Source: an uncultured archaeon (GTDB lineage: Archaea > Iainarchaeota > Iainarchaeia > Iainarchaeales > CSSED10-239). Taken from it: 32,000 nt of DNA. A program made the translations under genes and the position numbers. Within the stretch, counting starts at the first letter, position 1, and each line of letters starts with the position of its first letter. The notes beneath the pieces were generated by a model, which had not been told where the DNA came from, made no database searches, and saw only the letters and a list, made by a program, of their open reading frames with translations. Below are positions 4,083 to 28,641 of the stretch, in pieces. Location: the NCBI GenBank assembly GCA_964463155.1, contig CAYXAY010000002.1, positions 1-32,000 on the forward strand. Reading direction: 5' to 3'.

Positions 4083-4913
4083 ATGACTGAAAAAATAATT
4101 GATGACTTAAATCAAATTAAAGCTAAGGCAAATACTATTTATGACTCATTTGTATATCCTTTGCATAAAACTAATAAAACACAAAGAGCAGATTTTTTAA
4201 AAACACTAAAAATAAGCATTGACAGCCTTGCAAATGAATTAAGCAAACTTTCTGGTTATTCTGTTATTCAGTTCTCAAGAGAGATTGAGCCCGAAAAGGT
4301 AAGGCTGTTTCAGGAAAGGTTTTTAGATATGTCCGGAAGGATTAAACAGATATTGTTCTTTGAAGAAAAAACAGTTGAGGTAGATAATGATTTAGTAAAC
4401 ATTAAAAGAGAAATAACAACGCCAGAAATTTATTTTGAATTAGAGCAAGCAGTAAAGAATGACTTAAATAACCTAATTACATTTATTGACGGCTCCAAAA
4501 AACAAATAGAACATAAATATGCAAACCTTTCTAATCAAAAGCGATCTGTTGAGGAATTGTTAAAGATACTTGAAAAAAAGGAAAATACCATTAAAGAACT
4601 AAACAGAAAGATTGACGAATTATCTTGGATATCTGCAAAAGAAAAAACAAAAGAATCAAGGCTTGCAGGTCTTGAAGAAGACTTATTAAAAAGCTATAAG
4701 GCAAACGAACAAGACTTAACTGTTCTTAAACTTCATGTTTTACATATTGAAAAAACACTTGAAAATATCTTAAGAGACTCAAGACTTTTAGTTCAAGATA
4801 TAAATCATCTTGAAGCACAAAACATACTAAAAGAACAGACCTCTCTAGAGCTAATAAAAGAACTTAAAAAAGAATTGCTTGCAAGCAAATACAACTTGCA
4901 AAATAAAAAGTGA
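4083..4913 (+). CDS. soluble coiled-coil protein, first gene of the ATPase-associated surface locus
   Basis: 276-aa ORF, Lys/Glu/Leu-rich with heptad-like character, no TM segment. Its stop overlaps the next ORF. No family recognised. Confidence 0.65.
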   Translation: MTEKIIDDLNQIKAKANTIYDSFVYPLHKTNKTQRADFLKTLKISIDSLANELSKLSGYSVIQFSREIEPEKVRLFQERFLDMSGRIKQILFFEEKTVEVDNDLVNIKREITTPEIYFELEQAVKNDLNNLITFIDGSKKQIEHKYANLSNQKRSVEELLKILEKKENTIKELNRKIDELSWISAKEKTKESRLAGLEEDLLKSYKANEQDLTVLKLHVLHIEKTLENILRDSRLLVQDINHLEAQNILKEQTSLELIKELKKELLASKYNLQNKK

Positions 4914-4918
4914 TTACT

Positions 4919-6427
4919 ATGGCTGATTTTGACCCATTCTCTGGTGGACACGATTTCTATAAAGATTCCGAAGAAAAAACAAAAAAACCAAGCAACATAA
5001 AAACAACCGAGTTGATTAAAAAAACAATAACTACGGTAATCATTCTTGGAATTGTTGCTATTGTTGTGTATTTCTTATTTTTTAATACTAGAGATATAAG
5101 TTTTGATGTTACTGATAGAGAAGGGAGAAAAATTTCTACTCAAATAGAGATAAGAGAAACAAAAGGCACAAAGAGCCTAAGAATTTCATCAAATGAAAGC
5201 ATAAAATTAAATAAATCAAAAAAATACACTTATAGCGTTAATGCAAGTGGCTATTCCGCAATCAAAGCAGTCCCTATTGATTTTGATAATCCAGAGATTA
5301 AAATAGTCCTTATGAAAAACATAGCGCTGGCAATCAACAGCATTACTTGCCCGGCGCAGGTGTTTTTGGGGCAAAATGCAAAATGCGAACTACAGTTACA
5401 GAACAATAGCCCTAGCCAAGATTATAATTTAGATAATTTGACATTTGAAGCAGATGTAAAAGACTGGCCAGACATCAAGCACAAAACATTTGTTTATGTG
5501 GACAGTTTTAGAGAAGAACTTACAAACGATAGAAAAATAATTCTTGCTGGAAGAAACACCTCAGTCTTTGTTACTTTTGATGTTCCAACAGACAAGAAAT
5601 ATCTTGGAAATAAAAAGATTAGAGCAAGAGTAATTTACACAGATGTAAATAAAGACACAAACTTCAATATTCTCGAAACACCAACTATTAATTTTACTTC
5701 TGATATTTCAAGTCGCAGTAAAATGATAAGCGGGGAAACGATTTCCAAGAAATATACAATTGATAATACAAAAAACAAAACAGACATAAGCGATTTAGAG
5801 TTGTCTATTGTTGCTGATTACCAGCCAAACGATTCAAATATCACGTTTAATTTTAATTCTGATAAAGTGTTTGAACTTGATTATATTTTTATAACTGTTA
5901 ACAAGTCATCCACAAAAACAGGACTAATAACAATCAAATTGCCAAACAACATAAGAGCAGGAAAAATAGAAGGGAAATTATCTTTGAATAGCTCTATGTT
6001 TCCTAAAGCAAAAGATATTAATTTCTCAATAACTGTTGAAGAGCCACCAAATCTTTTTGAAATTAATCTTAGCAAAAGTTCTGAAAACCTAACTTATGAT
6101 TCCAACACCAATAGCACAAACACAAAAACAGTTGATGTTGTTTTTAATAACAAAAACAAGGTTGTTGTTAATATTAATGACGTTTCTGTGAAAAACTCTA
6201 CCGGAACAACAGACTGTAATAATTGGGTTGTTGTGCCTACACTTTACAATAATTATCCTTTGCAACCAAATGAAATACAGTCCGCGCCAATAATCTTAAA
6301 AGGCAATAATCTTTCAGCAACTACTGCAACAACTCCTAGATTTTGTGCAATAAAAGTGGAATATGTTCATCCATTTACTCAAGAGACGATTACGATTTTA
6401 AAAAGTTTAACAATAAATGTAGGGTAA
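4919..6427 (+). CDS. single-pass (N-in) membrane protein with large beta-sandwich-like, sequon-rich ectodomain
   Basis: ATG at 4919 (MADFDPF...); the track starts at GTG 4910. TM is ITTVIILGIVAIVVYFLFF. It has a PEGA-like segment (YTYSVNASGYSAIKAVPIDFDNPEIKIVL) and CARDB-like segments (ITCPAQVFLGQNAKCELQLQNNS...). I count about 18 N-x-S/T sequons by hand. Confidence 0.7.
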   Translation: MADFDPFSGGHDFYKDSEEKTKKPSNIKTTELIKKTITTVIILGIVAIVVYFLFFNTRDISFDVTDREGRKISTQIEIRETKGTKSLRISSNESIKLNKSKKYTYSVNASGYSAIKAVPIDFDNPEIKIVLMKNIALAINSITCPAQVFLGQNAKCELQLQNNSPSQDYNLDNLTFEADVKDWPDIKHKTFVYVDSFREELTNDRKIILAGRNTSVFVTFDVPTDKKYLGNKKIRARVIYTDVNKDTNFNILETPTINFTSDISSRSKMISGETISKKYTIDNTKNKTDISDLELSIVADYQPNDSNITFNFNSDKVFELDYIFITVNKSSTKTGLITIKLPNNIRAGKIEGKLSLNSSMFPKAKDINFSITVEEPPNLFEINLSKSSENLTYDSNTNSTNTKTVDVVFNNKNKVVVNINDVSVKNSTGTTDCNNWVVVPTLYNNYPLQPNEIQSAPIILKGNNLSATTATTPRFCAIKVEYVHPFTQETITILKSLTINVG

Positions 6428-6428
6428 T

Positions 6429-8444
6429 ATGGAGTATATAGATTGGATAATTTCAAGTGTTGTATTTATTACAGTTGTTGCATTGGTACTTTTGGTTATT
6501 TCCAATCTTTTGCCATTAACTAATAATTCCACAGATTTAATTGTTAGTGATGTAATTTATCAAAACCTTTCAAATCCAATTACTGTTTATAATGTTTCTA
6601 TGGATAATAACGATAACGAAGTTTATGGTTATTCAATAAATCTTGACAAGGCCTATGGTAGGGCTGGAAACACCTTTATTATTGATTATGATGAAAAAAC
6701 AATATATGGGACAATAACTAATACTGATAAATTTTACAATTACCAAACAAACATTAATTCCACATATGGTCTTGGCGCACTAATTGACTCAGAGGATTTT
6801 GAGGATTATAATTATGAAGATACTTTTTCTTTAATTGACGGCGCTGCTGAAATCAAATCAGGGATTTTAGAAACAAGTTCAGGAACAAAGATTCAATCTT
6901 TAAATAATTATTCTAGATACCTAGGAACAATTTCCACTGATGCTAATAATGTAATAGTATATGTCAGCTATATTGATGAAGATAATTTTTATTATTGTTC
7001 TTTTGCAAGAGGCAATGTGCAAATTTATCGGCGCATAGCTGGCGGAGAAATAGAAGAAAGAAGCTCTCCTTATCCTATTGAGAATTCATCTGAGTGGAGA
7101 AAACTATATTATGGAAATTATAAGCAAGATAATGATATTTACTTCTTTTGCGGGACAGAAAAAAATTATCTTCAAAACAATGCATCCACAAGTATTGGCG
7201 ACTTTAATCTAGACAATAGTAAGATTCTAATAGAAAGCAAAGATAACAAAACATATATTGATGATTTAAAAATCTATGATAATGTCTATGGAACTAATAT
7301 AAAACCAAGTCCTTCAATAGCATATCCTAGTCTTTCTACAAATTTAGAGGATAATGTAATTATAGTTGATTATAGACATCCGGAGATTGTTGCTACAAAT
7401 CAATTTGTGTTTACGGACAATATCACAAAGTACAATGCAGATTATATTAAGATTTATAAAAATGAAAACGGGCTTACAAAAGCAGTTTTCTTCCCTCATG
7501 CAAAGGAATTTTGGGCAAACATCTATGCGGATAAACCAATAGATATTTACCTTGAATCATCAAATCTTTATAACTTTAAATCACCTAATTTGTCAGGTGT
7601 GTTTAAAAATGAAGGATTAGATAGCTTTGGGAAATATAGAATTCCTTTTACTTTTATTCCTAATAAAAATTATATTGATGATGATGTGGTTTCCTTTAAT
7701 GTAAATTTTAATCTGGCATTTTCTGAAATCTCTGATATTTCAGAAGGCAAGCCCGAAACACCAAAATTGGTTTCATATACCAAAGATCACGGGTTTAAAG
7801 AGATAATGGATTTTAATTTGTACTTTAATTCAGATACCAATCAAGCACATGTGCTTTCTAAATTTCCCACGAGCGATAATGAAAACAACCCAATTTACTT
7901 GTTTATAATATTTAATAATTACAGTATCAGCAATAATTTAACAAAATTGACCCAAACAATTTCTTTTCCTTATGAACAACACACTGCGCAATCAAATACT
8001 AGCGCAATGACTTTTTATAATAATCAAATATATCTTTATAATTTTTATAATTCTAAACATCCGATTCTAAAACAAACAATAATGCTAAACTTGTTTGATA
8101 AAAACGGGCTAATTGACAATAATTGTAATTTTGAAATTACTTCTAATATTACCATTAGATGTAACTCAGATGCTTTGCTTAAAGTAAGATACCGGTTTGA
8201 TATTCCAGAAAATGTTAATCTTAATTATCCTAAATTAACAATAACTAAAACAAAGGAACAAATAATTCCACAGGATGTTTTTGAAAACCTATCCGGTGAT
8301 TCTTTCTATGCTAGAATTCTAAACAAGACATTAGATGTTAACTTCAATCGCGGAGTCAATCCTCCATATAAGAACAATACAAAATTCCTTTACAATAACG
8401 GCTTATTAGAAAATGCAACAATCTTTATTAAACCAATCAATTAG
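6429..8444 (+). CDS. membrane-anchored Asn-rich surface protein with a concanavalin-A/LamG-like lectin domain
   Basis: 671 aa with N-terminal hydrophobic anchor WIISSVVFITVVALVLLVISNLL. Residues about 120-285 follow the LamG/DUF1080-like pattern (DEDNFYYCSFARGNVQIYRRIAGGE...SEWRKLYYGN...IYFFCG...KTYIDDLKIYD). About 19 N-x-S/T sequons by hand count. Confidence 0.7.
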   Translation: MEYIDWIISSVVFITVVALVLLVISNLLPLTNNSTDLIVSDVIYQNLSNPITVYNVSMDNNDNEVYGYSINLDKAYGRAGNTFIIDYDEKTIYGTITNTDKFYNYQTNINSTYGLGALIDSEDFEDYNYEDTFSLIDGAAEIKSGILETSSGTKIQSLNNYSRYLGTISTDANNVIVYVSYIDEDNFYYCSFARGNVQIYRRIAGGEIEERSSPYPIENSSEWRKLYYGNYKQDNDIYFFCGTEKNYLQNNASTSIGDFNLDNSKILIESKDNKTYIDDLKIYDNVYGTNIKPSPSIAYPSLSTNLEDNVIIVDYRHPEIVATNQFVFTDNITKYNADYIKIYKNENGLTKAVFFPHAKEFWANIYADKPIDIYLESSNLYNFKSPNLSGVFKNEGLDSFGKYRIPFTFIPNKNYIDDDVVSFNVNFNLAFSEISDISEGKPETPKLVSYTKDHGFKEIMDFNLYFNSDTNQAHVLSKFPTSDNENNPIYLFIIFNNYSISNNLTKLTQTISFPYEQHTAQSNTSAMTFYNNQIYLYNFYNSKHPILKQTIMLNLFDKNGLIDNNCNFEITSNITIRCNSDALLKVRYRFDIPENVNLNYPKLTITKTKEQIIPQDVFENLSGDSFYARILNKTLDVNFNRGVNPPYKNNTKFLYNNGLLENATIFIKPIN

Positions 8445-8453
8445 AGTTATAAC

Positions 8454-8624
8454 CTATAACCCAAATACCATTCTAAGAATAAGAACCAATATGGCTATCC
8501 CAAGCGCTAGACCAATTACTGTTTCTGGAGATAATTGTGGGCCTCCTGAAGTTTCCTTAAATTTCATTATGCCTATAGCTGAACTTGGACCCTGATTTGT
8601 GTTTTTTATATAATTCATCTTCAT
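8454..8624 (-). CDS. secG: preprotein translocase subunit Sec61-beta (archaeal SecG)
   Basis: Below the ORF-track size cut-off. Hand translation gives MKMNYIKNTNQGPSSAIGIMKFKETSGGPQLSPETVIGLALGIAILVLILRMVFGL*. This matches the archaeal Sec61-beta pattern (SAGL.R...I.P..VIG plus a C-terminal TM). The start may be 8618. Confidence 0.75.
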   Translation of the reverse strand: MKMNYIKNTNQGPSSAIGIMKFKETSGGPQLSPETVIGLALGIAILVLILRMVFGL

Positions 8625-8714
8625 AAATCATCACTATTGACTATATGTATATATAACTTAGAAACCAAAACCTTTTATATTAATCTATTTTATATTTTAA
8701 TGGAGGTAAGGAAT

Positions 8715-9638
8715 ATGCCAGAAAAGATATCAGAATATAAGTGGCTTGTAAGAATTGTTTTTCTTATAATCATAATAATTATTGCATTATTTATTTTTAT
8801 CTGGACAGGAACCATAAGATGTAGAGCAATACCGGGAGGTTGTGGAGTTTATTGGGGGATGATGACTCTTGTAACTGGTAAGCAACAACCAAGCGTTCTT
8901 ATATTATATGACCCTACTGAACAAAAGGGACTAGGAAATCCAGAGTTGTTAAAAGATTTGTTGTCTGATAGAAAAGGTGTTGCAATTCACCCAAGCATTG
9001 CAGACATTAGATATCTAAATTCTGAACAGCTCAAGAACGTAAGTCTTGTTATTGTGGAAAAAGCAAGAAAAATATCTACATTACAATTGCTTACAATAAG
9101 AAACTATATTTCCCAAGGTGGAAGAGTTGTTTGGATTGGCGATGCCGGAACTATTGCAGACACTGACCGAGGAGACATGCTTTATATTGGCATTGCAAAC
9201 CCAAAAGAAAACGGGTGGGTAAGACTTACAGACACAAATGACATTATATTTTTCAATAGAACTATTGGCGTAAATTATATTTCTAATTTTTGTGATGTTA
9301 GAGATTGTGCTGTTGGAGACAAATATACAGGAAAACTTGTTCCAAGCTCTGATACTCACCCATTGACTTATGGGTTAAGGTCAAACCTTCCAATCTATGA
9401 CAATTATTCAATAGTAAAACTTACAGAACCAAACCCTGTGCCATTAAAGATTGATTATGGCTCCAGTTTGTTTGATAAAAAAAAATATAATTACGGAGAC
9501 ATATTTGATGCAATAGTAACATCAAACTCCAATCGCGTGGCTTACTATGCTATACCTCCAGAATATCTTGCAGAGCCCTCTGACAAAGAAAAATATTTTT
9601 CCGTAATATATAACATGTTTGATGGAATGGTAAACTGA
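8715..9638 (+). CDS. single-pass membrane protein, extracytoplasmic domain of unknown function
   Basis: ATG at 8715 is preceded by GGAGGT (the track starts at 8637). TM is WLVRIVFLIIIIIIALFIFIWTG. VLILYDP...GGRVVWIGDAG faintly resembles a flavodoxin/GATase1-like fold, which I could not verify. Confidence 0.65.
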   Translation: MPEKISEYKWLVRIVFLIIIIIIALFIFIWTGTIRCRAIPGGCGVYWGMMTLVTGKQQPSVLILYDPTEQKGLGNPELLKDLLSDRKGVAIHPSIADIRYLNSEQLKNVSLVIVEKARKISTLQLLTIRNYISQGGRVVWIGDAGTIADTDRGDMLYIGIANPKENGWVRLTDTNDIIFFNRTIGVNYISNFCDVRDCAVGDKYTGKLVPSSDTHPLTYGLRSNLPIYDNYSIVKLTEPNPVPLKIDYGSSLFDKKKYNYGDIFDAIVTSNSNRVAYYAIPPEYLAEPSDKEKYFSVIYNMFDGMVN

Positions 9639-9639
9639 T

Positions 9640-9993
9640 ATGACAAAATCATTTGAAGTAGCAATTGCAGTAATCTTGCTACTGTGTTTTGTCTTTTTTT
9701 TGTTTGAAAGCGTAAATCAAGAATATAAGAGCGTGCCTATTCCTGATGATGTAAAATCTCTTGTTTTAAGCAATGCAGAAAACGAGGGGTTTAGACAACT
9801 TGTTCTAAATAAGGATGTGGACAATATTTACTCTACCTTGTATCCGCAGATGGACTATAAATTTAATGTGTCAATATGCGATTGGCTAAACACGGACTGT
9901 CAGACGAAAACCGTTTCGGGGTTTACAAAGAAAAAAGAATTTGTTTATTATTTTGCAGACATAAACAAAACACTGCACTTACAAATGGATTAA
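9640..9993 (+). CDS. small pilin-like protein (short charged N-terminus plus hydrophobic helix)
   Basis: 117 aa, MTKSFEVAIAVILLLCFVFFLFES..., starting 1 nt after the previous stop. Candidate class III signal peptide with atypical Ser at -1. Confidence 0.6.
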   Translation: MTKSFEVAIAVILLLCFVFFLFESVNQEYKSVPIPDDVKSLVLSNAENEGFRQLVLNKDVDNIYSTLYPQMDYKFNVSICDWLNTDCQTKTVSGFTKKKEFVYYFADINKTLHLQMD

Positions 9994-9994
9994 T

Positions 9995-10471
9995 ATGAAG
10001 AAAGGTTTTACATATATTATTACAACAATGATAATCATCATATTAATTTCTAGTATTTTTATAATATTTAATCCAGTTAAAAAAACCGTAAACACAACAC
10101 CTAATATTCTTGCAAAAAATTATGAGATAGAATTTTTAAAACTTTCAAGTTCTAACCCTACAATCCAAGACATAAACAATCTAAACTATGGTTTTAAAAA
10201 ATTTACAAACAGCAATAATTATGATGTAAAAATTTGTAGCATTGTAGAAAACCAAACAAGCATAATCTTAAGCAACTATACTTCAGAAAACTGTAATCTA
10301 GTGATTGATGGGATGTTTAGTGGGGTTGTTTATGATAATAGTACTGTGACAATAGATAGATTTATAAATAATACGAATATATATTTATGTAGTTGTTATT
10401 ATGCCGGTGGCAAAAATGTTTATTATATAGATATTTATAACGAAAATTCAAAAACCATACTAAAAAACTAG
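9995..10471 (+). CDS. putative archaeal type IV pilin-like protein (class III signal peptide)
   Basis: 158 aa. MKKG/FTYIITTMIIIILISSIFIIF fits the FlaFind-style pattern [KRDE][GA][ALIFQMVED][ILMVTAS] followed by a hydrophobic stretch of about 20 aa. The rest is Asn-rich with sequons. Confidence 0.65.
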   Translation: MKKGFTYIITTMIIIILISSIFIIFNPVKKTVNTTPNILAKNYEIEFLKLSSSNPTIQDINNLNYGFKKFTNSNNYDVKICSIVENQTSIILSNYTSENCNLVIDGMFSGVVYDNSTVTIDRFINNTNIYLCSCYYAGGKNVYYIDIYNENSKTILKN

Positions 10472-10482
10472 AGGGAAAAATT

Positions 10483-10833
10483 ATGAAGGATGTAATGGGG
10501 CTTTTAAACCAGATAGAAGAAAAGAGCAACATCATTGTTGCAAAGCTTGAAATCTTAAGATTTGCAGAAGAAGATGCTCAAACAATAAAGAAATCTCTTG
10601 ATGGAATTAAGAAAAAACTTGACAGTGGAGAGATAAGCAAATTCTCATATGCAACAATGCTTGAAATGAACAAAAAAAGAGCAGTAGACAATACCAACTC
10701 CAAAAAGAAAACCTGGGATGAGGTTGCAGAAGCCATTAATGAGATTAGCGATATGCTAAATGATTTAAAAGACACCTATAACTCAAAAACAGAATATGGG
10801 GGTGTAGATGAAATTAAAGGAATCAAGCCTTAA
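10483..10833 (+). CDS. small soluble coiled-coil protein
   Basis: 116 aa with GAGGG Shine-Dalgarno upstream and no TM. Sits immediately upstream of the ATPase gene. Confidence 0.6.
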   Translation: MKDVMGLLNQIEEKSNIIVAKLEILRFAEEDAQTIKKSLDGIKKKLDSGEISKFSYATMLEMNKKRAVDNTNSKKKTWDEVAEAINEISDMLNDLKDTYNSKTEYGGVDEIKGIKP

Positions 10834-10873
10834 ATTCACTATTATACTTTCAAACAGAATATAAAGATGAGCC

Positions 10874-12865
10874 ATGAAAATACCAACTCAAAAGGATGCT
10901 TCAAAGCTTGTTGATCTAATTATTAGTCTTAAAAATATTGAAAACAAAAGAAGTGCTGAAGAAAAGGCAATCTTAGAAAAATTCTATAACGAAGAAATCA
11001 GTTCTAAGGAATTGATGAAAGGACTGAAAGAAAAAAATCTTTTTGTTAAATCAAAACAACTTGATAAGGAATTTGTTAAGGCGATTATTGAATATAATGT
11101 TCTTCTATCACAAATATCTTCAGATATTGACATAACTAACTTACGGAAATTTTATTTGACAAAAAGATCTGTTCTAAAACAATTAATTAAAAGCATATTT
11201 GCATACTCAAAAGAAAAAAGCACAGATCAAAAACAAAAAAAAGTGCAAAAACCAAAACTTGTTGCAATCACTCCGACACATCCTGCAACTCATAAAAATA
11301 TTATAGACAAAATCTTTAGTGGCGGAGAAAAAATAGACACAGAGTCTCTAAAGATTACTGAAAATGCAATGAATACTCCTGCTTTTGAAGAGCCAAAAGA
11401 ACTTTTGCCTGAAAACTACCAAGTATTGATACAAGGTTTTGCATATGCTTTTGTTGAAGAAAAAGAAGAAAATAGAAGGTATGTTGTTGCAGAACCAGAG
11501 CTTACAAAAGAAGAAGAAACGGTGCTTGCCGACACTAAGCAAGAACTTATCAATAAGATTTCATTAATTGACCTAAAGGAAGAATCAGAACTTATTAAAC
11601 ATGTAGACAAGATATTTTCAAAAACTAAACTAAATGCACAACAGCGTTCAAAAATCATGTATTATGTTGGAAGACAAATAAAAGGGCTAGACGCCATTGA
11701 ACCATTGATGCATGACCCATTGATTGAAGATATTGAGTGCGACGGCACAGGGATACCAATATTTATTGTTCACAGAAAATACGGACACCTTGAAACTAAT
11801 ATTATTTTTAATAGCGACAAGGAATTACAACAATTTGTAATCAAGATGGCACACCTAAGTAAAAGTTATGTTTCTTATGCAAGTCCATTACTTGATTCTA
11901 TACTTCCTGATGGCTCCCGTGTCAATGCAACACTAACTAGCAATGTTTCAACTAGAGGTCCAACATTTACTATAAGAAAATTCCCACACAAACCATTAAC
12001 CGCAATTGATTTAATAAAAAGTAAAACTATGAATTCTATGATTGTTGCTTATATCTGGACAATTATGGAATTTCAAAAAACAGCACTTATTATCGGACCA
12101 ACAGCAGGGGGTAAAACCACATTATTAAATATTATTACATCATTTATTCCTCCAGGAAAAAGGGCAGTTTCAATTGAGGATACTAGAGAAATAAATCTTT
12201 TGCTTGACAACTGGATACCACAGGTCACTAGACCTGGCTTTGGACCACCAGACAGCACTGGAAAAAAATATGGAGAAATAACGATGCTTGATCTTATCAA
12301 AGAATCATTCAGACAAAGACCTGATTATCTGGTATTAGGGGAAGTAAGAGGAGAAGAAATGTCTTTAATGTTTCAGGGCATGGCATCAGGACACTGTTGT
12401 CTATCAACAGTGCATGCAAGAAGTATAAATGATCTTGTAAACCGATTAATAACTCCCCCAATATCTCTGGAGCCAAGCCTATTAACATCACTTGATTTAG
12501 TTATAGTTACGGGTTTTCAAGGAGGTAGCGCTGTAAAAAGAATAATCAAGGAACTTGATGAGATTAATGGTTATAATATTAAGGATAACAAGATAGAATA
12601 CAATGTTATTTATAGTGTATCAGATAAATCACAAACAAAAGAAGGAGACTTGTTTACAAATGAACTGCCCATCACCTATAAAAGCGAAATACTTAAGTCT
12701 ATAGCAAAAGAATATGATATTAATATCAATGATTTGTTAGAAATGATTAACAAAAGAATTGCATTTATTAACGAATTAAGCAAAAACCCGCCAAAGGATT
12801 ATGTTGAGTTCAAGCTTGCGATAAACAAATATAAGTTGCAAGAAAAAGAATTATTTGCAAAATAA
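10874..12865 (+). CDS. FlaI/PilB (GspE/VirB11 superfamily) type IV filament assembly ATPase with N-terminal extension
   Basis: YVVAEPELTKEEE motif typical of archaeal FlaI-like ATPases. Walker A GPTAGGKTT (about 12095-12121), Walker B DYLVLGEVRGEE, His box GHCCLSTVHA. 663 aa. Confidence 0.9.
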   Translation: MKIPTQKDASKLVDLIISLKNIENKRSAEEKAILEKFYNEEISSKELMKGLKEKNLFVKSKQLDKEFVKAIIEYNVLLSQISSDIDITNLRKFYLTKRSVLKQLIKSIFAYSKEKSTDQKQKKVQKPKLVAITPTHPATHKNIIDKIFSGGEKIDTESLKITENAMNTPAFEEPKELLPENYQVLIQGFAYAFVEEKEENRRYVVAEPELTKEEETVLADTKQELINKISLIDLKEESELIKHVDKIFSKTKLNAQQRSKIMYYVGRQIKGLDAIEPLMHDPLIEDIECDGTGIPIFIVHRKYGHLETNIIFNSDKELQQFVIKMAHLSKSYVSYASPLLDSILPDGSRVNATLTSNVSTRGPTFTIRKFPHKPLTAIDLIKSKTMNSMIVAYIWTIMEFQKTALIIGPTAGGKTTLLNIITSFIPPGKRAVSIEDTREINLLLDNWIPQVTRPGFGPPDSTGKKYGEITMLDLIKESFRQRPDYLVLGEVRGEEMSLMFQGMASGHCCLSTVHARSINDLVNRLITPPISLEPSLLTSLDLVIVTGFQGGSAVKRIIKELDEINGYNIKDNKIEYNVIYSVSDKSQTKEGDLFTNELPITYKSEILKSIAKEYDININDLLEMINKRIAFINELSKNPPKDYVEFKLAINKYKLQEKELFAK

Positions 12866-18977: not shown

Positions 18978-19883
18978 ATGATAGATAAAGACATTTTAAG
19001 GATTGGAAAAGACATAAAAGACATAAAGATACAAGGGGCTAGTAAGATTGAGCTTGCAGCAGTTGATGCAATTAAAAATCTTATTAATAGGAGCAAGTTT
19101 AATGGTGATGATTTTTTAGCAGAAGTTGTAGAAAACATTAATTTCTTGATTGCTCAAAGACCTAATGAGCCAAAACTTAGAAACTCTTTGTCTTATATTT
19201 GGCAAACAGCAAACAAATATTCTTCTGTTAAAGACAGAAATATTTTGATTGACTATATTGAACATTATCGAGACAATACCGAGAAAGGAAATCAATTGAT
19301 TTCTGAGTATGCTTCTCAGATTATCACTAATGGTTCACTTATTTTAACACATTGTCATTCTAATCTTGTAGAAGACACCTTCAAGAAGGCCTATGAAAAA
19401 GGGATTGACTTTGAAGTAATCTGCACAGAGACAAGACCTAGATTTCAAGGAAGAATAACTGCTAAAGCTTTAAGCGACTATGGGATTAAGACAACACAGA
19501 TTGTTGACTCTGCAGTTTCAACTTATCTTAAAAAGATAGATTTTTTCTTGACAGGCGCAGATGTTGTTTTTCTGGACGGTTCGATCATGAATAAGATTGG
19601 AACGCACACCATCAGTATTGCTGCAAAACACTTTAAGACACCTCACATTGTTTTAACTTCCACACACTGTGTAGAAACAGACGTCTTTGTTTCACTTAGC
19701 GAAGCTGTAGAAGAAAGAGATATTGAAGAGATCTGGAAAGAAGTAGACGGAAGACCAAAAGACCTGCGATTAAGAAATCCTTCTTTTGATATAGTACCAA
19801 ACGAGCTAATAGACAAATTCATAACAGAAGAAGGAGTCTTTACTCCAGAAACCTTGGCCATATGGAATAGAAAAAAAAAATAG
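18978..19883 (+). CDS. eIF-2B alpha/beta/delta family protein, probable ribose-1,5-bisphosphate isomerase
   Basis: TETRPRFQGR, ILTHCHS (catalytic Cys context) and LTGADVVFLDGSIMNKIGT (catalytic Asp context). The 301-aa size fits the aIF-2BII/R15P isomerase subgroup. Confidence 0.7.
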   Translation: MIDKDILRIGKDIKDIKIQGASKIELAAVDAIKNLINRSKFNGDDFLAEVVENINFLIAQRPNEPKLRNSLSYIWQTANKYSSVKDRNILIDYIEHYRDNTEKGNQLISEYASQIITNGSLILTHCHSNLVEDTFKKAYEKGIDFEVICTETRPRFQGRITAKALSDYGIKTTQIVDSAVSTYLKKIDFFLTGADVVFLDGSIMNKIGTHTISIAAKHFKTPHIVLTSTHCVETDVFVSLSEAVEERDIEEIWKEVDGRPKDLRLRNPSFDIVPNELIDKFITEEGVFTPETLAIWNRKKK

Positions 19884-19893
19884 ACATGGTATT

Positions 19894-20422
19894 ATGTATG
19901 AACTTAAAACTGATAAAATTTATTTAAGAACCATCATTCCTTCAGATGCTACGGAATTATATGAATACATAAAAAACAAATCGGATAATCTGCATAGCGA
20001 TTTTAATTACCCCTTTTCAGTAGATGACTCTTAAAAAATGTTTGAAAGAATGATTCCCGCCAGTCCGGAAAAATATTTCGGATTTACTATTTGTACAGCC
20101 AGTGACATTGTTGGATTTATTTCACTTAGATTAGATTAAAAAAAACAAAAATGCCTAAATCGGGTTGTGAATTGCAAAACCATTTAGAAATAAAGGCCAT
20201 GGTAAAGATGCGGTCAATTTAATCACAGATTTTGGCTTTAAAAACCAGGAACTAAATCTAATTTATTGCAACATAGATTTTGATAATTCCACATCAATTA
20301 ATCTATTTAAAAAGTGTAATTATATATTAGAAGCTAGCCTTAAAGAAAGGCATCTAATTGATGGACAATTCAAAGATTCTGTGATTTTAACTAAATTTAC
20401 TGAGAATTCCCAAAAATCTTAA
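19894..20422 (+). pseudogene. decayed GNAT (RimJ/RimL-like) N-acetyltransferase
   Basis: Conceptual product MYELKTDKIYLRTIIPSDATELYEY...IAKPFRNKGHGKDAVNLITDFGFKNQELNLIYCNIDFDNSTSINLFKKCNYILEASLKERHLIDGQFKDSVIL carries the RxxGxG acetyl-CoA motif. It is interrupted by TAA at 20032, a frameshift in or next to the A8 run at 20137-20145, TAA at 20156 and TGA at 20168. Confidence 0.8.
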
Positions 20423-20694: not shown

Positions 20695-23145
20695 TTAAAA
20701 ATCCATTAGGTCTTTTTGTTTAGTGTTGGTGATTAGTTCGTCTTTTGAGATGCCAAGCTCTTCTAGGATTGGAAGTATTGCAGGGATTAGCTGGTTGTTG
20801 ATGTAATACTCGCTATCATAATCTTTTTCTTTAACAAACTCTGCAAGCTGAGACTTGTCTGAGATTGTCTTTCCGGATTTTTCTGTAACAATGTACTCTA
20901 CAAGATCTCCAACTTTAAATTTCTTTCCTGCTTTTTTTGCATTCTTTACTGCTGCCATTGCTGGGTTTAATGTCTTGTAGCTTTCAAGAGATTTGTGAAC
21001 AAAAGTTTGAATTATTAGTTTTGAGTTTGGAATTTCTTTAGTCTTTAAGTCTTCAATAATAAATTGAATATACTTTTGGGCTTTCTTGGAGTCTTGCTCT
21101 TTTAAGATTAACTTTAGAATTTCCTTTTGAGTTTCCTTAACCAATGGACACCAATCATGTCTTACATACTCAAAGCCTTTAATCTTAAGATTACCATTAT
21201 AATCAAGAAGAGCATATTTCTTTTTTGCTGCTCTTTCCTTATCACGAGAATGAACAAAGATTCCTGACATATAGATGTTTTCAAGTTCTAAATGCATGGC
21301 TTTTGGAAGAGACGCATTTATGTTTTTTATGTCTTCCTTTAACTTTTCAACACTTCTAAACTCAATAAAGCAAGAATCTGTGTCTCCATAGATAACTAGA
21401 TAGCCAAGTCTTTCTAAGTCCTTAATGATATCTTGAATCTTTAGTCTAACAAGACAATACATTACTTCAAGAGATGGCCTTGAATACCATCGCGCTCCTG
21501 CAAAGCCCATATAACCATAGGTTGATGCTAAGAATATCTTTAGAACATATTGCTTTGCATGCATGTTTCTATATTCTTGTGTGTCTTTTGAAATAGTTTT
21601 TGCTGCTTCTTTATATCCTGCTCTTAATGACAATAGTTCTTCAAGAATCTCTGGAACAAATCCTTTCTTGTTGTAACAAAGATGATGTCCTGTAATATTT
21701 TCTTTTTTGTTTTCCTTACAGCAAGAACAATCAACTGTTTCTGGAGAAATATTATATGATATCAATATTGAAATATGATAACTTCTAAAATCTAGAACAG
21801 CAATGTTTTTGTGCAGTCCTGGAATTGGAGACTTTACAAAGGCCCCACTAAATGTAAATTTTTGCCTTTCTGCAATCTCTTCTGAACTTGGTTTGTTTGG
21901 AATGATTTTTCCTTTTTTAGAATAGTGTTTAAAAAACATTCTTTCTACCATTGCCCCCGCAGAAGAGAAGACGATGTCATTAACTGGATAATTGATAAAA
22001 TCAGAAATCTCAAACGCAATTGGTATATAGTTGTTTGCAAGTTCCATTGTTGCAACAACATCATCAAGGTTATAGTCTATTATCTTTTGATAATCGCTTG
22101 AAAGATAACTTTCTCTCATTTCTTTTGGGGGCATTGTTAGTTTTGCGTTTCCTGTTAGCTTTGAGTAAAGAGAGTTTAAGTCAAGTTTTGGATAATTAAA
22201 TACCTGTAGATATCTTAGAAGTCTCATCAAGGCATAAACATCAATATGCACTGTGCCTTCTAGACTAACTTTTCTTGTTTGCCCTTTTGAAAAAATTATT
22301 CTGCTGTTTGAAAAGGTTAGCTCTTCTTTTTTGTGTGCCCTGTAGGTTTTTTCCATATATTCAAAGTCAAATATTCCATTGTAGGTATAAACAATATCAA
22401 TGTCTTTTAAATTAACAAAATCCCTAAAGCCTTCAATCATCTTTATTTCGTCTTGGTAAAGATATATTTTTAAGAACTGGTTGTGCTTTTGTAGTTGTTC
22501 TTTTATCTCTTCAAGGTTTTCTTTTTTGTCTATTAAAAAAAACACAGCTTTTTCTTTTGAGCTGTCGATGTAAGAGATTGAGATTATCTTATCTTTTCCT
22601 GGTTTTGGAAAAGAGATGTTTTCTGGAACCAAGACTTCTATGTCAAAGACTGCTGATTTTAGTTTTGAGAAGTCTGTTGTTGCTTTGGGGATAATGTCAG
22701 TTATCCTTCCCTCGTCGTTTAATGTGTATTCTATTTCCTTGAAATTGCTAAGGTATTTATCCATCAAGAACCTGTAGACAAAAGGAATGTCGTATTCATA
22801 AAGTTTGTATTTTTTGTTTGGAAAAACCGAATTTTCAAGAAAATGGGTTCTGGTCCTTACTAGGTCTTCAACATTTTCAAAAATCAGCTTGTAAGTGTTG
22901 TTTTCCTTTAGCGCTATCCCTTTGACGTTTTGCTCTGATTTAAGAATGTCCGTGTCTTCTGATTCTAGTTTGCTGTTAAGAGATATATAAAAATAAGGCT
23001 GGTAGTCGATTGCAAGAGTTTGCTTAGAGTTTTCCTTTCTTAAGGTTGCATAAAGTGATTTGTCCTTATAGAAAACATCTAGAAGAACTGCTCTGTTGAT
23101 TGTTTGTGTCTTTTCCTTTGGGGCTTTCTTAAAGATATTAAACAT
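20695..23145 (-). CDS. polB: family B DNA polymerase
   Basis: Exo I FDIE, Exo II YNGIFDFEY, Exo III YNLDDV. Motif A LDFRSYHISI (variant), motif B KIFLASTYG (variant), motif C YGDTDS. C-terminal PIP-like QKDLMDF. 816 aa with no intein. Confidence 0.95.
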   Translation of the reverse strand: MFNIFKKAPKEKTQTINRAVLLDVFYKDKSLYATLRKENSKQTLAIDYQPYFYISLNSKLESEDTDILKSEQNVKGIALKENNTYKLIFENVEDLVRTRTHFLENSVFPNKKYKLYEYDIPFVYRFLMDKYLSNFKEIEYTLNDEGRITDIIPKATTDFSKLKSAVFDIEVLVPENISFPKPGKDKIISISYIDSSKEKAVFFLIDKKENLEEIKEQLQKHNQFLKIYLYQDEIKMIEGFRDFVNLKDIDIVYTYNGIFDFEYMEKTYRAHKKEELTFSNSRIIFSKGQTRKVSLEGTVHIDVYALMRLLRYLQVFNYPKLDLNSLYSKLTGNAKLTMPPKEMRESYLSSDYQKIIDYNLDDVVATMELANNYIPIAFEISDFINYPVNDIVFSSAGAMVERMFFKHYSKKGKIIPNKPSSEEIAERQKFTFSGAFVKSPIPGLHKNIAVLDFRSYHISILISYNISPETVDCSCCKENKKENITGHHLCYNKKGFVPEILEELLSLRAGYKEAAKTISKDTQEYRNMHAKQYVLKIFLASTYGYMGFAGARWYSRPSLEVMYCLVRLKIQDIIKDLERLGYLVIYGDTDSCFIEFRSVEKLKEDIKNINASLPKAMHLELENIYMSGIFVHSRDKERAAKKKYALLDYNGNLKIKGFEYVRHDWCPLVKETQKEILKLILKEQDSKKAQKYIQFIIEDLKTKEIPNSKLIIQTFVHKSLESYKTLNPAMAAVKNAKKAGKKFKVGDLVEYIVTEKSGKTISDKSQLAEFVKEKDYDSEYYINNQLIPAILPILEELGISKDELITNTKQKDLMDF

Positions 23146-23179: not shown

Positions 23180-23827
23180 TTATAGCATATTAATCAAAAT
23201 AACTGCGACAACTAACAATATCATCAATGCAAGTTTTGAGAAAAAACCTTTGACCTCAAACACAATTTCAGTAAATTCAAAAAGCATTAATATCCAATAG
23301 ATTAGCATATAGATTGTTAATGCCGCAAACAATATTATTCCAATTATGTTTAGTGTTGTTAATGCCGGAAATATTGTTGCACTGTCTACAAGGCCAGGGT
23401 TTACTGATATTGCTTGTATAATCGAGATGATTGCTGGAAAGAAAACTACAATGATTACTGCTGCAAGAACAGAATAGATAATTGTGGTTATTCTAAAGGA
23501 AGCAAGACTCGAGAGAACCTTTTCAAATGGCTTTTTTGGAAGGCCCTTTTTCCCTCTAATAAAATACATTATCAAAAACACAACAATTCCTAAAAGCAAC
23601 CAATTAAGCAGTATTGTAGAATAGATCTGTATCAAGGAATACTTGAATAGCTCTGGGCCCTTGAATAATCCATAGATTAGGATATTTAACAATAACGCAA
23701 TGATTATTACAATTAGGCTTTCAAATAAATTGACTTTTAGAAAGAAAAAATCAACAATCGCCTTTGGGCCTCTTTTTGGCTTATAGGCTTCGTGTAGATT
23801 AATTTCTGATTTTTTTGCTTCTGGCAT
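23180..23827 (-). CDS. five-pass membrane protein (possibly Yip1-domain-like)
   Basis: ATG at 23827 is preceded by AGGTGA; the track's GTG 23836 lies inside that Shine-Dalgarno. Short charged N-terminus followed by about 5 TM helices. The family call is tentative. Confidence 0.55.
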   Translation of the reverse strand: MPEAKKSEINLHEAYKPKRGPKAIVDFFFLKVNLFESLIVIIIALLLNILIYGLFKGPELFKYSLIQIYSTILLNWLLLGIVVFLIMYFIRGKKGLPKKPFEKVLSSLASFRITTIIYSVLAAVIIVVFFPAIISIIQAISVNPGLVDSATIFPALTTLNIIGIILFAALTIYMLIYWILMLFEFTEIVFEVKGFFSKLALMILLVVAVILINML

Positions 23828-23920
23828 TTTTCTCACCTTTAAATAAATTTACATAAATATATTTAGATAAAAGGATATTTAAAGCTTGTGTTGGGTTTTA
23901 AATTATTTTTGTTAATAGTT

Positions 23921-25009
23921 ATGTTTATGGCTGTCTCAAAAACGCAAGTTTTCTCAAAACCATTCAATCTTGTTTATGAGAATAATTATCCAAATCTTTT
24001 GGTGGGTCCTGGGTTTTTTGAAGAACAAAATATTGCAAGCTCTTCAGACCCTAAACAGTGGATAAGAAAAAAACCTGAAGAGATTGAGAAAGACAGAGCT
24101 AAACAGGTTTTTTCTTTTAAGCGTTTTACAAAGACTGACGCCATAAGGCATGACAAAACGCTTTCAGACATACAGTTATTGTCACAATCAGTAAACACCA
24201 CGGAAATTGAAGTTGGGCTTGAAAAGAAAGCGCAGATGATTAAGGAAAACTATTCAGGGGTTAACAACTGCTCATATGGCTTTAATGACTTAAAGATTAT
24301 TGATAATGTTAAGATTCCTCCAAGCATTGATAAGGTTGTTAATGATGGGGATATGAAGGCAAAGGAAGGGATATTGCAGCTCAATAATAAGCTTGATGAT
24401 GTTTATAAGATTGAACAAATATTGTCTATGGGTCTTCTTGGAATAAATAAAAACAGAATACTTGTTCCAACAAGATGGGCAATAACTTCAACTGATGACA
24501 TTATCTCTAAAGACTTGATTGAAAACTCTCTTCTTGATTATCCAGCCATTGATAAATACGAAATCTTTTCTTTTATGTTTTATCAAAATATATTTTTTGT
24601 TCTTTTTGTTCCAAAAATCTGGGGTTTTGAACAGATTGAAATACAAGGAGAAAATGTTTGTGAAGACTTTGAGATAAATGGCCCAAGAAAGAAATATGCT
24701 AGTAGCGTGACTGGTGGGTATTATGCTGCAAGAATAGAGATTGCTAAATATCTAGCAAGAAGAAAAAGACAAGCATCAGTTATTGTTTTTAGAGATATTT
24801 CTCCAAGCTATCAATCAAAAGGAGTTTGGGTGATAAGAGAGGCCGTTAAAGAAGCATTAACAAAAGAACCGTATGTCTTTGATTCCCTTGAACAAGCAAT
24901 GTCATTTATCAATTTGCATATAAGAAACGGAGCAAGCTATTGGCTTCCACACTCACAACTTTACAAAGAAATAAAAACACAAAAACGAATTACTGATTTT
25001 TTCAAATAG
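23921..25009 (+). CDS. nreA: NreA-like DNA repair protein (DUF650/DUF651) with C-terminal PIP box
   Basis: ILVPTRWAITSTDDIISKDL and GGYYAARIEI are typical of archaeal Nre proteins. Canonical PIP box QKRITDFF at 24980-25003. The track starts at GTG 23888; ATG at 23921 is preferred. Confidence 0.75.
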   Translation: MFMAVSKTQVFSKPFNLVYENNYPNLLVGPGFFEEQNIASSSDPKQWIRKKPEEIEKDRAKQVFSFKRFTKTDAIRHDKTLSDIQLLSQSVNTTEIEVGLEKKAQMIKENYSGVNNCSYGFNDLKIIDNVKIPPSIDKVVNDGDMKAKEGILQLNNKLDDVYKIEQILSMGLLGINKNRILVPTRWAITSTDDIISKDLIENSLLDYPAIDKYEIFSFMFYQNIFFVLFVPKIWGFEQIEIQGENVCEDFEINGPRKKYASSVTGGYYAARIEIAKYLARRKRQASVIVFRDISPSYQSKGVWVIREAVKEALTKEPYVFDSLEQAMSFINLHIRNGASYWLPHSQLYKEIKTQKRITDFFK

Positions 25010-28493: not shown

Positions 28494-28525
28494 AGAAAAA
28501 AATCTTAATAGAATAAGCATTAAAA
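28494..28525 (-). terminator. T-tracts following the 5S rRNA
   Basis: On the minus strand, TTTT follows the 5S 3' end directly (28525-28522), and a T7 run lies at 28502-28496. Confidence 0.4.
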
Positions 28526-28641
28526 GTTAGCAACTAACTTGCTGCTCCAAGAATGAACTTAGTGCAAACAATGTCGGAGATGAACTTTACTTCTGGGTTC
28601 GGAAAGGGTCCAGGTGTTTCTCCATCCCTATGGTCGCTAAC
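28526..28641 (-). rRNA. rrf: 5S ribosomal RNA (stand-alone)
   Basis: Minus strand reads GTTAGCGACCATAGGGATGG...CCTTTCCGAACCCAGAAGTAAAGTT...GTTAGTTGCTAAC. Conserved CCGAAC and GAAGTAAAG elements are present. A 9-bp terminal helix I pairs GTTAGCGAC with GTTGCTAAC. Confidence 0.85.

Follow-up and report, generated by a model that had tools for sequence, protein, structure and literature searches.

A family B DNA polymerase of the Iainarchaeota with histidine at the steric gate and alanine in place of the motif B asparagine

In the ternary complex of KOD, a family B DNA polymerase (PolB) of the Thermococcales, the deoxyribose packs on Y409 with C2' nearest the ring, and N491 stacks on the nascent base pair, forms a bond with the beta-phosphate and can form one with the 3'-OH (PMC5718519). 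According to a 2026 review, the steric gate is Tyr or Phe in family B and is His in PolC only (PMC13492167); in PolC, His1275/1268 is a proposed gate. In PolD, DP2 H931 is a proven steric gate, and a 3'-OH bond through a ring nitrogen has been proposed for it (PMC7708050). The Y100H form of the human primase-polymerase PrimPol bonds the 2'-OH, equalises the use of ribonucleoside and deoxyribonucleoside triphosphates (NTPs and dNTPs) and aids cells under dNTP depletion. Living Thermococcus and yeast do not readily tolerate mutation of the family B gate, and in T. kodakarensis the native PolB locus did not accept gate mutations. Here we describe a PolB gene on the first 32,000 nucleotides of contig CAYXAY010000002.1 (assembly GCA_964463155.1, from an uncultured archaeon), a stretch referred to in its entirety as the window. 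Its product has His at the gate and Ala in place of the motif B Asn, and most of the phylum Iainarchaeota shares the gate Tyr-to-His change. Residue numbers are those of the window protein unless marked KOD.

The gene (20695..23145, minus strand) encodes 816 amino acids. The product is a family B polymerase that is probably Thermococcales-like (PolB3-type). The Pfam domains PF00136 (E = 3.5e-54, 184.7 bits) and PF03104 (E = 4.4e-22, 79.1 bits) both exceed their gathering cut-offs of 23 bits each. Searched with phmmer against all PDB chains, the protein matches Thermococcales PolBs best (KOD, 9N, Tgo and Pfu, E ~1e-96), as against E = 5e-30 for Sso PolB1. Neighbour-joining (NJ) trees, built without curated PolB1/PolB2 references, group it with sequences from DPANN archaea and Thermococcales. 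The AlphaFold2 model (predicted local distance difference test score, pLDDT, 91; predicted TM score, pTM, 0.85) has the right-hand fold with N-terminal, exonuclease, palm, fingers and thumb domains, and Foldseek matches it to 9N and KOD complexes with TM scores of 0.78-0.86. No NCBIfam equivalog model exceeded its cut-off for the protein, and the finest name available is family B.

Family B membership is plain, yet the protein departs from both signatures that bear on the sugar pocket. The motif A gate signature is Dx2SLYPS, of which the Asp is present and the Tyr is replaced by His; the motif B signature is Kx3NSxYG, in which the Asn is replaced by Ala. Motif A reads DFRSYHISI (21766..21792, minus strand, residues 452-460, with D452 as metal ligand) and motif B reads KIFLASTYG (21514..21540, minus strand, residues 536-544, with Lys, Ser, Tyr and Gly retained). 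The translation of positions 21514-21792 on the minus strand is DFRSYHISILISYNISPETV...KIFLASTYG. Relative to KOD, the motif A segment LDFRSYHISILISYNISPETV (also shown as LDFRSYHISILI) carries L408Y, Y409H and P410I. The motif B segment KIFLASTYGYMGF, set against KOD KILANSYYGYYGY, carries A490L, N491A and Y493T, with A485V slightly upstream; the cores align as KIFLASTYG over KILANSYYG. The codons of Y456 (21778-21780), H457 (21775-21777), I458 (21772-21774) and A540 (21526-21528), all on the minus strand, correspond to KOD L408, the steric-gate Tyr Y409, P410 and N491, respectively. Other equivalent pairs in motif B are K536/K487, L539/A490, T542/Y493 and Y543/Y494.

The phmmer alignment to KOD, 9N and Tgo PolB is gap-free through motifs A and B, and its columns recur in three separate MAFFT alignments, of 121, 267 and 94 sequences. 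The sequence-only reading of the window had aligned these motifs with Thermococcales PolB, setting YHI against the Leu-Tyr-Pro of motif A and Ala against the motif B Asn, and this placement was correct. Since proper alignment restores neither Tyr nor Asn, the observation stands. The spacing from D452 to H457 equals that from D404 to Y409 in KOD, and in the model the D452 strand leads into a helix that has H457 in its first turn. A shift of register, with Tyr456 as the true gate, was rejected because no alignment has an indel between D452 and H457. Members with the LHP form of motif A have no Tyr nearby, so His must occupy the gate site in them.

The search covered 5.8 billion proteins and afterwards 1.84 billion cluster representatives, as well as 185,579 species-representative genomes. 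Locus counts refer to the 80 best-matching species genomes, which are mostly Iainarchaeota (Diapherotrites, DPANN); most of the records are named Iainarchaeum, ainarchaeum or Diapherotrites. Gate His occurs in 65 of 267 aligned proteins, and 47 of these 65 also have Ala at KOD N491. Canonical relatives from Micrarchaeota, Aenigmarchaeota, Thermococcales and other groups have Tyr together with Asn in 197 out of 197 cases. At the level of loci, gate His is found in 61 of the 80. Twenty loci have the [YF]H[IVL]/Ala combination, including the complete genome of Candidatus Forterrea multitransposorum (L014), and we refer to this group, which includes the window, as clade 1. His with Asn retained, [LFY]H[PM], is found in 41 loci (clade 2), among them that of the type species Candidatus Iainarchaeum andersonii (L053; SLHPT and KILLNSHYG). 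The remaining 19 loci are LYP/Asn. Among the 267 proteins, the only gate that is neither Tyr nor His is the Trp of P0243 (DFRSFWPSL), from a 165-kb JGI contig.

Within clade 1, His at the gate, Tyr or Phe at KOD 408, Ile, Val or Leu at KOD 410 and Ala at KOD 491 each reach 100%, and four natural members have the YHV form. The pocket residues are constant in 44 homologues down to 45% identity, and each position shows synonymous codon variation. In 21 species genomes His is encoded by CAT (16) and CAC (5), Tyr by TAT (18) and TAC (3), Ile by ATT, ATA or ATC, and Ala by GCA, GCT or GCC. Residues that stay constant while their codons vary are a signature of purifying selection; thus, the substitutions are not due to chance. 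Whether the double variant is lineage-wide had been left for a multiple alignment to decide, and YH[IVL] with the Asn-to-Ala change is common to the whole clade. A further substitution, V534 (21544..21546, minus strand), is private to the window protein. It falls at KOD A485, the Therminator position, which governs analogue uptake in engineered enzymes and at which the other clade members have Ala (93%).

The remaining catalytic machinery is intact. Motif C reads YGDTDS (21373..21390, minus strand, residues 586-591), with catalytic Asp588 and Asp590 and a DTD core that is 100% conserved. The finger-helix residues R508 and K512 (21610..21624, minus strand) correspond to KOD R460 and K464, which are triphosphate ligands (PMC5718519), and are invariant in two alignments. 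The exonuclease motifs, all on the minus strand, are Exo I FDIE (22636..22647; D168 and E170), Exo II YNGIFD (22366..22383; N256 and D260; one residue shorter than in KOD) and Exo III YNLDD (22060..22074; Y358 and D362). Conservation within the clade is 98-100% at the equivalents of KOD D404, F405, D542, R460, K464, Q483, K487, Y494, G495 and T541, of E578, E580, K592 and Y594, and of the exonuclease residues D141, E143, D215, Y311 and D315. The uracil-pocket residues Y7, P36, Y37 and I114 are retained. The C-terminal tail QKDLMDF (20698..20718, minus strand) resembles a PCNA-interacting peptide; Q810 is invariant, the consensus KQKxLxxF is conserved, and such a Q-x-x-L-x-x-F tail would be expected to bind PCNA. 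In L011 (CAYXWT010000008.1; protein P0032), a clade 1 species, all five exonuclease catalytic residues are replaced (FNIK, SDF, CVLDE) and the polymerase motifs are intact, making it a natural exonuclease-dead YHI/Ala polymerase.

Two off-consensus signature motifs and the lack of an NCBIfam equivalog above cut-off might suggest a degenerating or inactivated paralogue, of the PolB2 kind, or a polymerase of a virus or mobile element. The evidence effectively refutes this and leaves it very improbable. The metal, triphosphate and exonuclease ligands are intact under purifying selection, the fold is predicted with high confidence, no genome contributes more than one PolB locus to the 80 best hits, and the neighbours are housekeeping genes (L11, Spt5, FtsZ, TBP). 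A PolB2-like dead copy was rejected because all polymerase and exonuclease carboxylates are present and conserved, and a viral or mobile origin because of the conserved housekeeping synteny described below. The sequence-only reading had also called motif C and Exo I-III canonical and the enzyme probably active; Pfam, phmmer, Foldseek and residue conservation agree that by sequence it is a catalytically intact family B polymerase. With moderate confidence, we regard the window PolB as a working, proofreading, chromosomal enzyme, probably tethered to PCNA, whose host would be a relative of Forterrea within the DPANN phylum Iainarchaeota.

The order of the changes was read from trees, all of them neighbour-joining. 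In a first tree of 253 sequences the His sequences together are not monophyletic; on closer inspection all but one outlier, P0257, fall into a single large superclade in which Tyr members are scattered. In a tree built with the motif columns removed (200 bootstraps), support is 95% for the Iainarchaeota superclade and 100% for the YH[IVL]/Ala clade, to which the window and Candidatus Forterrea belong. The sister of this clade is L023 (YHP, Asn retained; 91%), and the next lineage outward is L052 (FHM, Asn retained). From this branching order, Tyr-to-His came first, Leu408-to-Tyr second, and Pro410-to-aliphatic and Asn-to-Ala last. Parsimony requires at least seven Tyr/His changes within the phylum, some of them between supported sisters (L070 versus L044/L067, 81%; L045 versus L029, 79%), and close relatives swap Tyr and His with no further change in the pocket.

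Such frequent exchange could mean that the substitution is a neutral, conservative swap followed by entrenchment, with His and Tyr interchangeable in Iainarchaeota, the additional changes a matter of compensatory drift, and the substrate range the same throughout. The recurrence of the change between sisters, the sufficiency of one transition and the unchanged catalytic residues are all consistent with this. However, there is no Tyr/His polymorphism in ~200 PolBs outside the group, so the position is not generally neutral, and His is 100% fixed in clade 1 over a range of 45-100% identity. Four independent pairings of His with Asn-to-Ala, including the convergent YHT/Ala of P0124, point to directional coupling and not to drift. 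We therefore consider neutrality quite unlikely.

The pairing of the two sites is seen most clearly in the distribution of N491A. On the species tree a single change suffices. Across the aligned proteins, N491A has arisen on a His background in clade 1, P0124, P0161 and P0257 (at least four origins) and on a Tyr background in P0258 only; Tyr sequences are three times commoner than His, yet they provide this one case. The nearest relatives of P0124 (YHT/Ala) are LHP sequences at 53% identity, and it has come by convergence to have Tyr at 408 and a residue other than Pro at 410. P0161 is LHP/Ala. In none of 60 bootstrap replicates does P0124 or P0161 group with the main clade. P0257 (L081 6001-8460, GCA_964603525.1) is LHP/Ala with Y494H in addition; it comes from a different archaeon, is chromosomal, lies beside FEN1 and RFC, and has canonical LYP (Tyr-gate) PolBs as its nearest relatives. 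The repeated appearance of N491A on His backgrounds argues that a gate His makes loss of the Asn acceptable or favoured, and suggests that sites 409 and 491 are coupled.

The substitutions in clade 1 extend beyond motifs A and B. Twenty-three columns, KOD 408, 409 and 491 included, are fixed in the clade and near-absent elsewhere. In a palm helix (residues 559-569, KOD 510-520; 21439..21471, minus strand) we find A510L, V513M, T514Y, G517V and Y520K, each at >=98% in the clade and <=0.5% in canonical relatives. KOD I521, which adjoins this helix, is near D542 and the active site, and T514I is an RTX mutation (PMC9738464). This cluster is probably a second-shell repacking behind motif A. Together with the phylum-wide Tyr-to-His trait and the second step in the window clade, it goes beyond what had been noticed from the window sequence.

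We propose that the sugar pocket was rebuilt in two steps. In most of the phylum the gate Tyr would have become His by a single T-to-C transition; in the window clade Leu408 would then have become Tyr, Pro410 Ile, Val or Leu, and Asn491 Ala, with the helix behind motif A repacked. The imidazole of His457 would lie beneath C2' of the incoming nucleotide and would still be the gate, as it is in PolD and has been proposed to be in PolC. By hydrogen-bonding the 3'-OH it could make the Asn491 contact redundant, allowing the Asn to be lost, and this loss, with Tyr456, Ile458 and the repacked helix, would have locked the His in. The expected outcome is an enzyme that keeps its preference for dNTPs and whose stringency at the 2' and 3' positions of the sugar is shifted, probably lower, not abolished. 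On balance we have intermediate confidence in this picture of an active DNA polymerase with a remodelled sugar pocket, in which His gates and takes over the 3'-OH contact and selectivity is shifted but not lost. Three points weigh against it. In PrimPol a Tyr-to-His change removes discrimination, so the opposite outcome is plausible. Loss of Asn491 also drops a beta-phosphate contact that His cannot replace. Finally, the Tyr/His switches within the phylum could reflect a minor cellular role of PolB rather than functional equivalence.

A stronger effect is conceivable, in which His457 and the loss of Asn491 substantially lower 2' and/or 3' discrimination, so that ribonucleotides or non-standard sugars are inserted readily. 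Symbionts that scavenge nucleotides would in this way have adapted to dNTP pools that are scarce or out of balance. PrimPol Y100H, in which NTP and dNTP use are equalised to the benefit of dNTP-depleted cells, is a precedent. The YH[I/V] of the clade resembles the YAV of engineered 9N, and Therminator III carries L408S/Y409A/P410V. N491S and L489Q are beneficial in threose nucleic acid (TNA) polymerases, L408F is present in Tgo EPFLH, and Y493L and T514I are present in KOD RTX. A member of the clade, Candidatus Forterrea, is reported to be without nucleotide synthesis and dependent on nucleotide salvage, and a gene for a salvage-pathway ribose-1,5-bisphosphate isomerase adjoins PolB throughout the clade.

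Other observations argue against such a strong effect. His is competent as the steric gate of PolD and has been proposed for PolC, Tyr and His are swapped among close relatives whose pockets are otherwise unchanged, and the engineered variants carry small residues at 409 (Ala, Gly or Val) rather than a ring. The intolerance of T. kodakarensis to gate mutations at the native locus implies a high cost for a strongly leaky enzyme, unless only a little of the DNA is made by PolB. We regard the strong effect as the main alternative to the remodelled pocket, possible but less likely. The sequence-only reading had suggested relaxed or unusual nucleotide discrimination on the grounds that mutating these positions alters sugar and analogue selectivity in laboratory polymerases. 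The literature bears out this effect in laboratory enzymes, and the relevance of the pocket positions stands. On the relaxation itself the precedents diverge, with a His gate proven in PolD and proposed in PolC set against PrimPol Y100H; given the interchange of Tyr and His among close relatives, near-equivalence fits at least as well as a drastic change. We suggest only tentatively that Iainarchaeota PolBs, chiefly those of the YH[IVL]/Ala clade, have relaxed 2'/3' selectivity and tolerate ribonucleotides or modified sugars, perhaps also RNA-containing primers or templates.

PolD is the usual main replicase. It is reported to be widespread in DPANN archaea, and RNase H is reported to be kept in all DPANN phyla. 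A motif scan (GLAPHT, DGDE) of the window and ~1.3 Mb of locus flanks found no PolD, nor was one found among all open reading frames (ORFs) >850 aa in those flanks; both results are uninformative for whole genomes.

The window is otherwise an ordinary stretch of archaeal chromosome, with tRNAs and genes for L11, Spt5, FtsZ, ribose-1,5-bisphosphate isomerase, an NreA-like protein, AglB, 5S rRNA, TBP, L21e and KsgA. The order L11-Spt5-FtsZ-ribose-1,5-bisphosphate isomerase-PolB-membrane protein is found at nearly all clade 1 loci and at none outside, and this conserved gene order indicates that PolB was inherited vertically. Directly upstream of PolB, across a 34-nt gap, lies a gene for a multi-pass membrane protein of 218 aa (23180..23836, minus strand). 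It has no Pfam or NCBIfam match; a homologue is present at 19 of 20 clade 1 loci and at no other locus, and the two genes may be co-transcribed as an operon. A divergent gene for an NreA-like archaeal DNA repair protein (Nre_N and Nre_C; 23888-25009, plus strand) adjoins the membrane protein/PolB pair and occurs at 9 of 20 clade 1 loci. On the other side PolB is adjoined by the ribose-1,5-bisphosphate isomerase-like gene (IF-2B family; 18978-19883, plus strand), whose best match, TIGR00511, is under its cut-off. This gene is syntenic with PolB at 18 of 20 clade 1 loci and belongs to a nucleotide-salvage/RuBisCO pathway.

Several other features of these loci were noted. In the otherwise empty 0.8-kb gap between the isomerase-like gene and PolB, two short ORFs, 46 and 33 aa long, lie side by side (19894-20139, plus strand) and have the appearance of fragments of one disrupted gene. 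At 4083-12865 (plus strand) there is a run of seven ORFs of 116-671 aa without a significant Pfam family, of which the one at 6429-8444 has only a weak sub-threshold match to SOP4. The run ends with an ATPase of the type II/IV secretion family (T2SSE, 10874-12865) and is possibly a gene cluster for a pilus or for secretion. Next to TBP there is a 5S rRNA gene (28525-28641, minus strand) that stands alone, the window having no 16S or 23S rRNA gene. At many clade 2 (His/Asn) loci, including L021, L022, L027, L033, L042, L044, L053 and L054, a giant ORF of 1,000-1,860 aa lies upstream of PolB and runs past the end of the locus; it is possibly a large surface protein.

Full-text literature searches returned no Tyr-to-His gate variant of a family B polymerase, and in them the steric gate was never paired with DPANN, Iainarchaeota or Forterrea. 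The family B gate Tyr is regarded as essentially invariant, and a phylum that uses mostly His is a natural experiment in rebuilding sugar selection. It offers a graded natural series for comparison (LYP/Asn, LHP/Asn, YHP/Asn and YHI/Ala) and new scaffolds for modified-nucleotide polymerases, at positions that engineers already target. It may also tie polymerase chemistry to the nucleotide-scavenging life of DPANN symbionts. If selectivity does prove to be relaxed, the trait would be a consequence of the inability of these symbionts to make nucleotides, which leaves them to replicate from scavenged pools, and nature would have reached the directed-evolution positions 408, 409, 410, 489, 491, 493 and 514 independently.

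Compared with the Thermococcales PolBs (KOD, 9N, Tgo, Pfu and Vent), the window protein has the same domain order and fold at ~30% identity, the same metal and triphosphate ligands and Exo I-III motifs, and, in common with them, a PCNA-box-like tail and the uracil-pocket residues. It differs from them in L408Y, Y409H, P410I, A490L, N491A and Y493T, in the private A485V, in the five changes in helix 510-520, in the shorter Exo II and in having no inteins. With PolD, and with PolC as proposed, it would have in common a His by the 2' position of the sugar as the gate; the folds are unrelated, and the likeness is one of mechanism, not of membership. In human PrimPol Y100H and in the His of M. tuberculosis PolDom, an equivalent Tyr-to-His site is found at the gate on which the sugar stacks. 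PrimPol differs in its archaeo-eukaryotic primase fold, in that discrimination is abolished and in that Y100H is a somatic mutation, not the trait of a lineage.

The closest parallels to the composition of the pocket are engineered. The 9N variants YAV and YAS are L408Y/Y409A/P410V or S with A485L, and YAV accepts 3'-O-azidomethyl nucleotides; Therminator III, with its changes at the same three positions, and KOD Mut_C2 are further motif A variants. The window clade follows the pattern of YAV, in which 408 is Tyr, 409 is occupied by a smaller residue and 410 by a branched aliphatic one. The natural enzyme keeps the His ring and its exonuclease, unlike the engineered 9N and KOD enzymes, which carry Ala at 409, are exonuclease-deficient and were selected for 3'-blocked nucleotides. 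Sugar specificity is also altered in polymerases for TNA and other xeno nucleic acids (XNA), namely Kod RS, QS and RSGA (N491S, L489Q, A485R) and KOD RTX (Y493L, T514I, I521L). Residues 489, 491, 493 and 514 are changed both in these enzymes and in the natural clade, in which the replacements are different ones, Phe, Ala, Thr and Tyr, respectively, that evolved together with a His gate.

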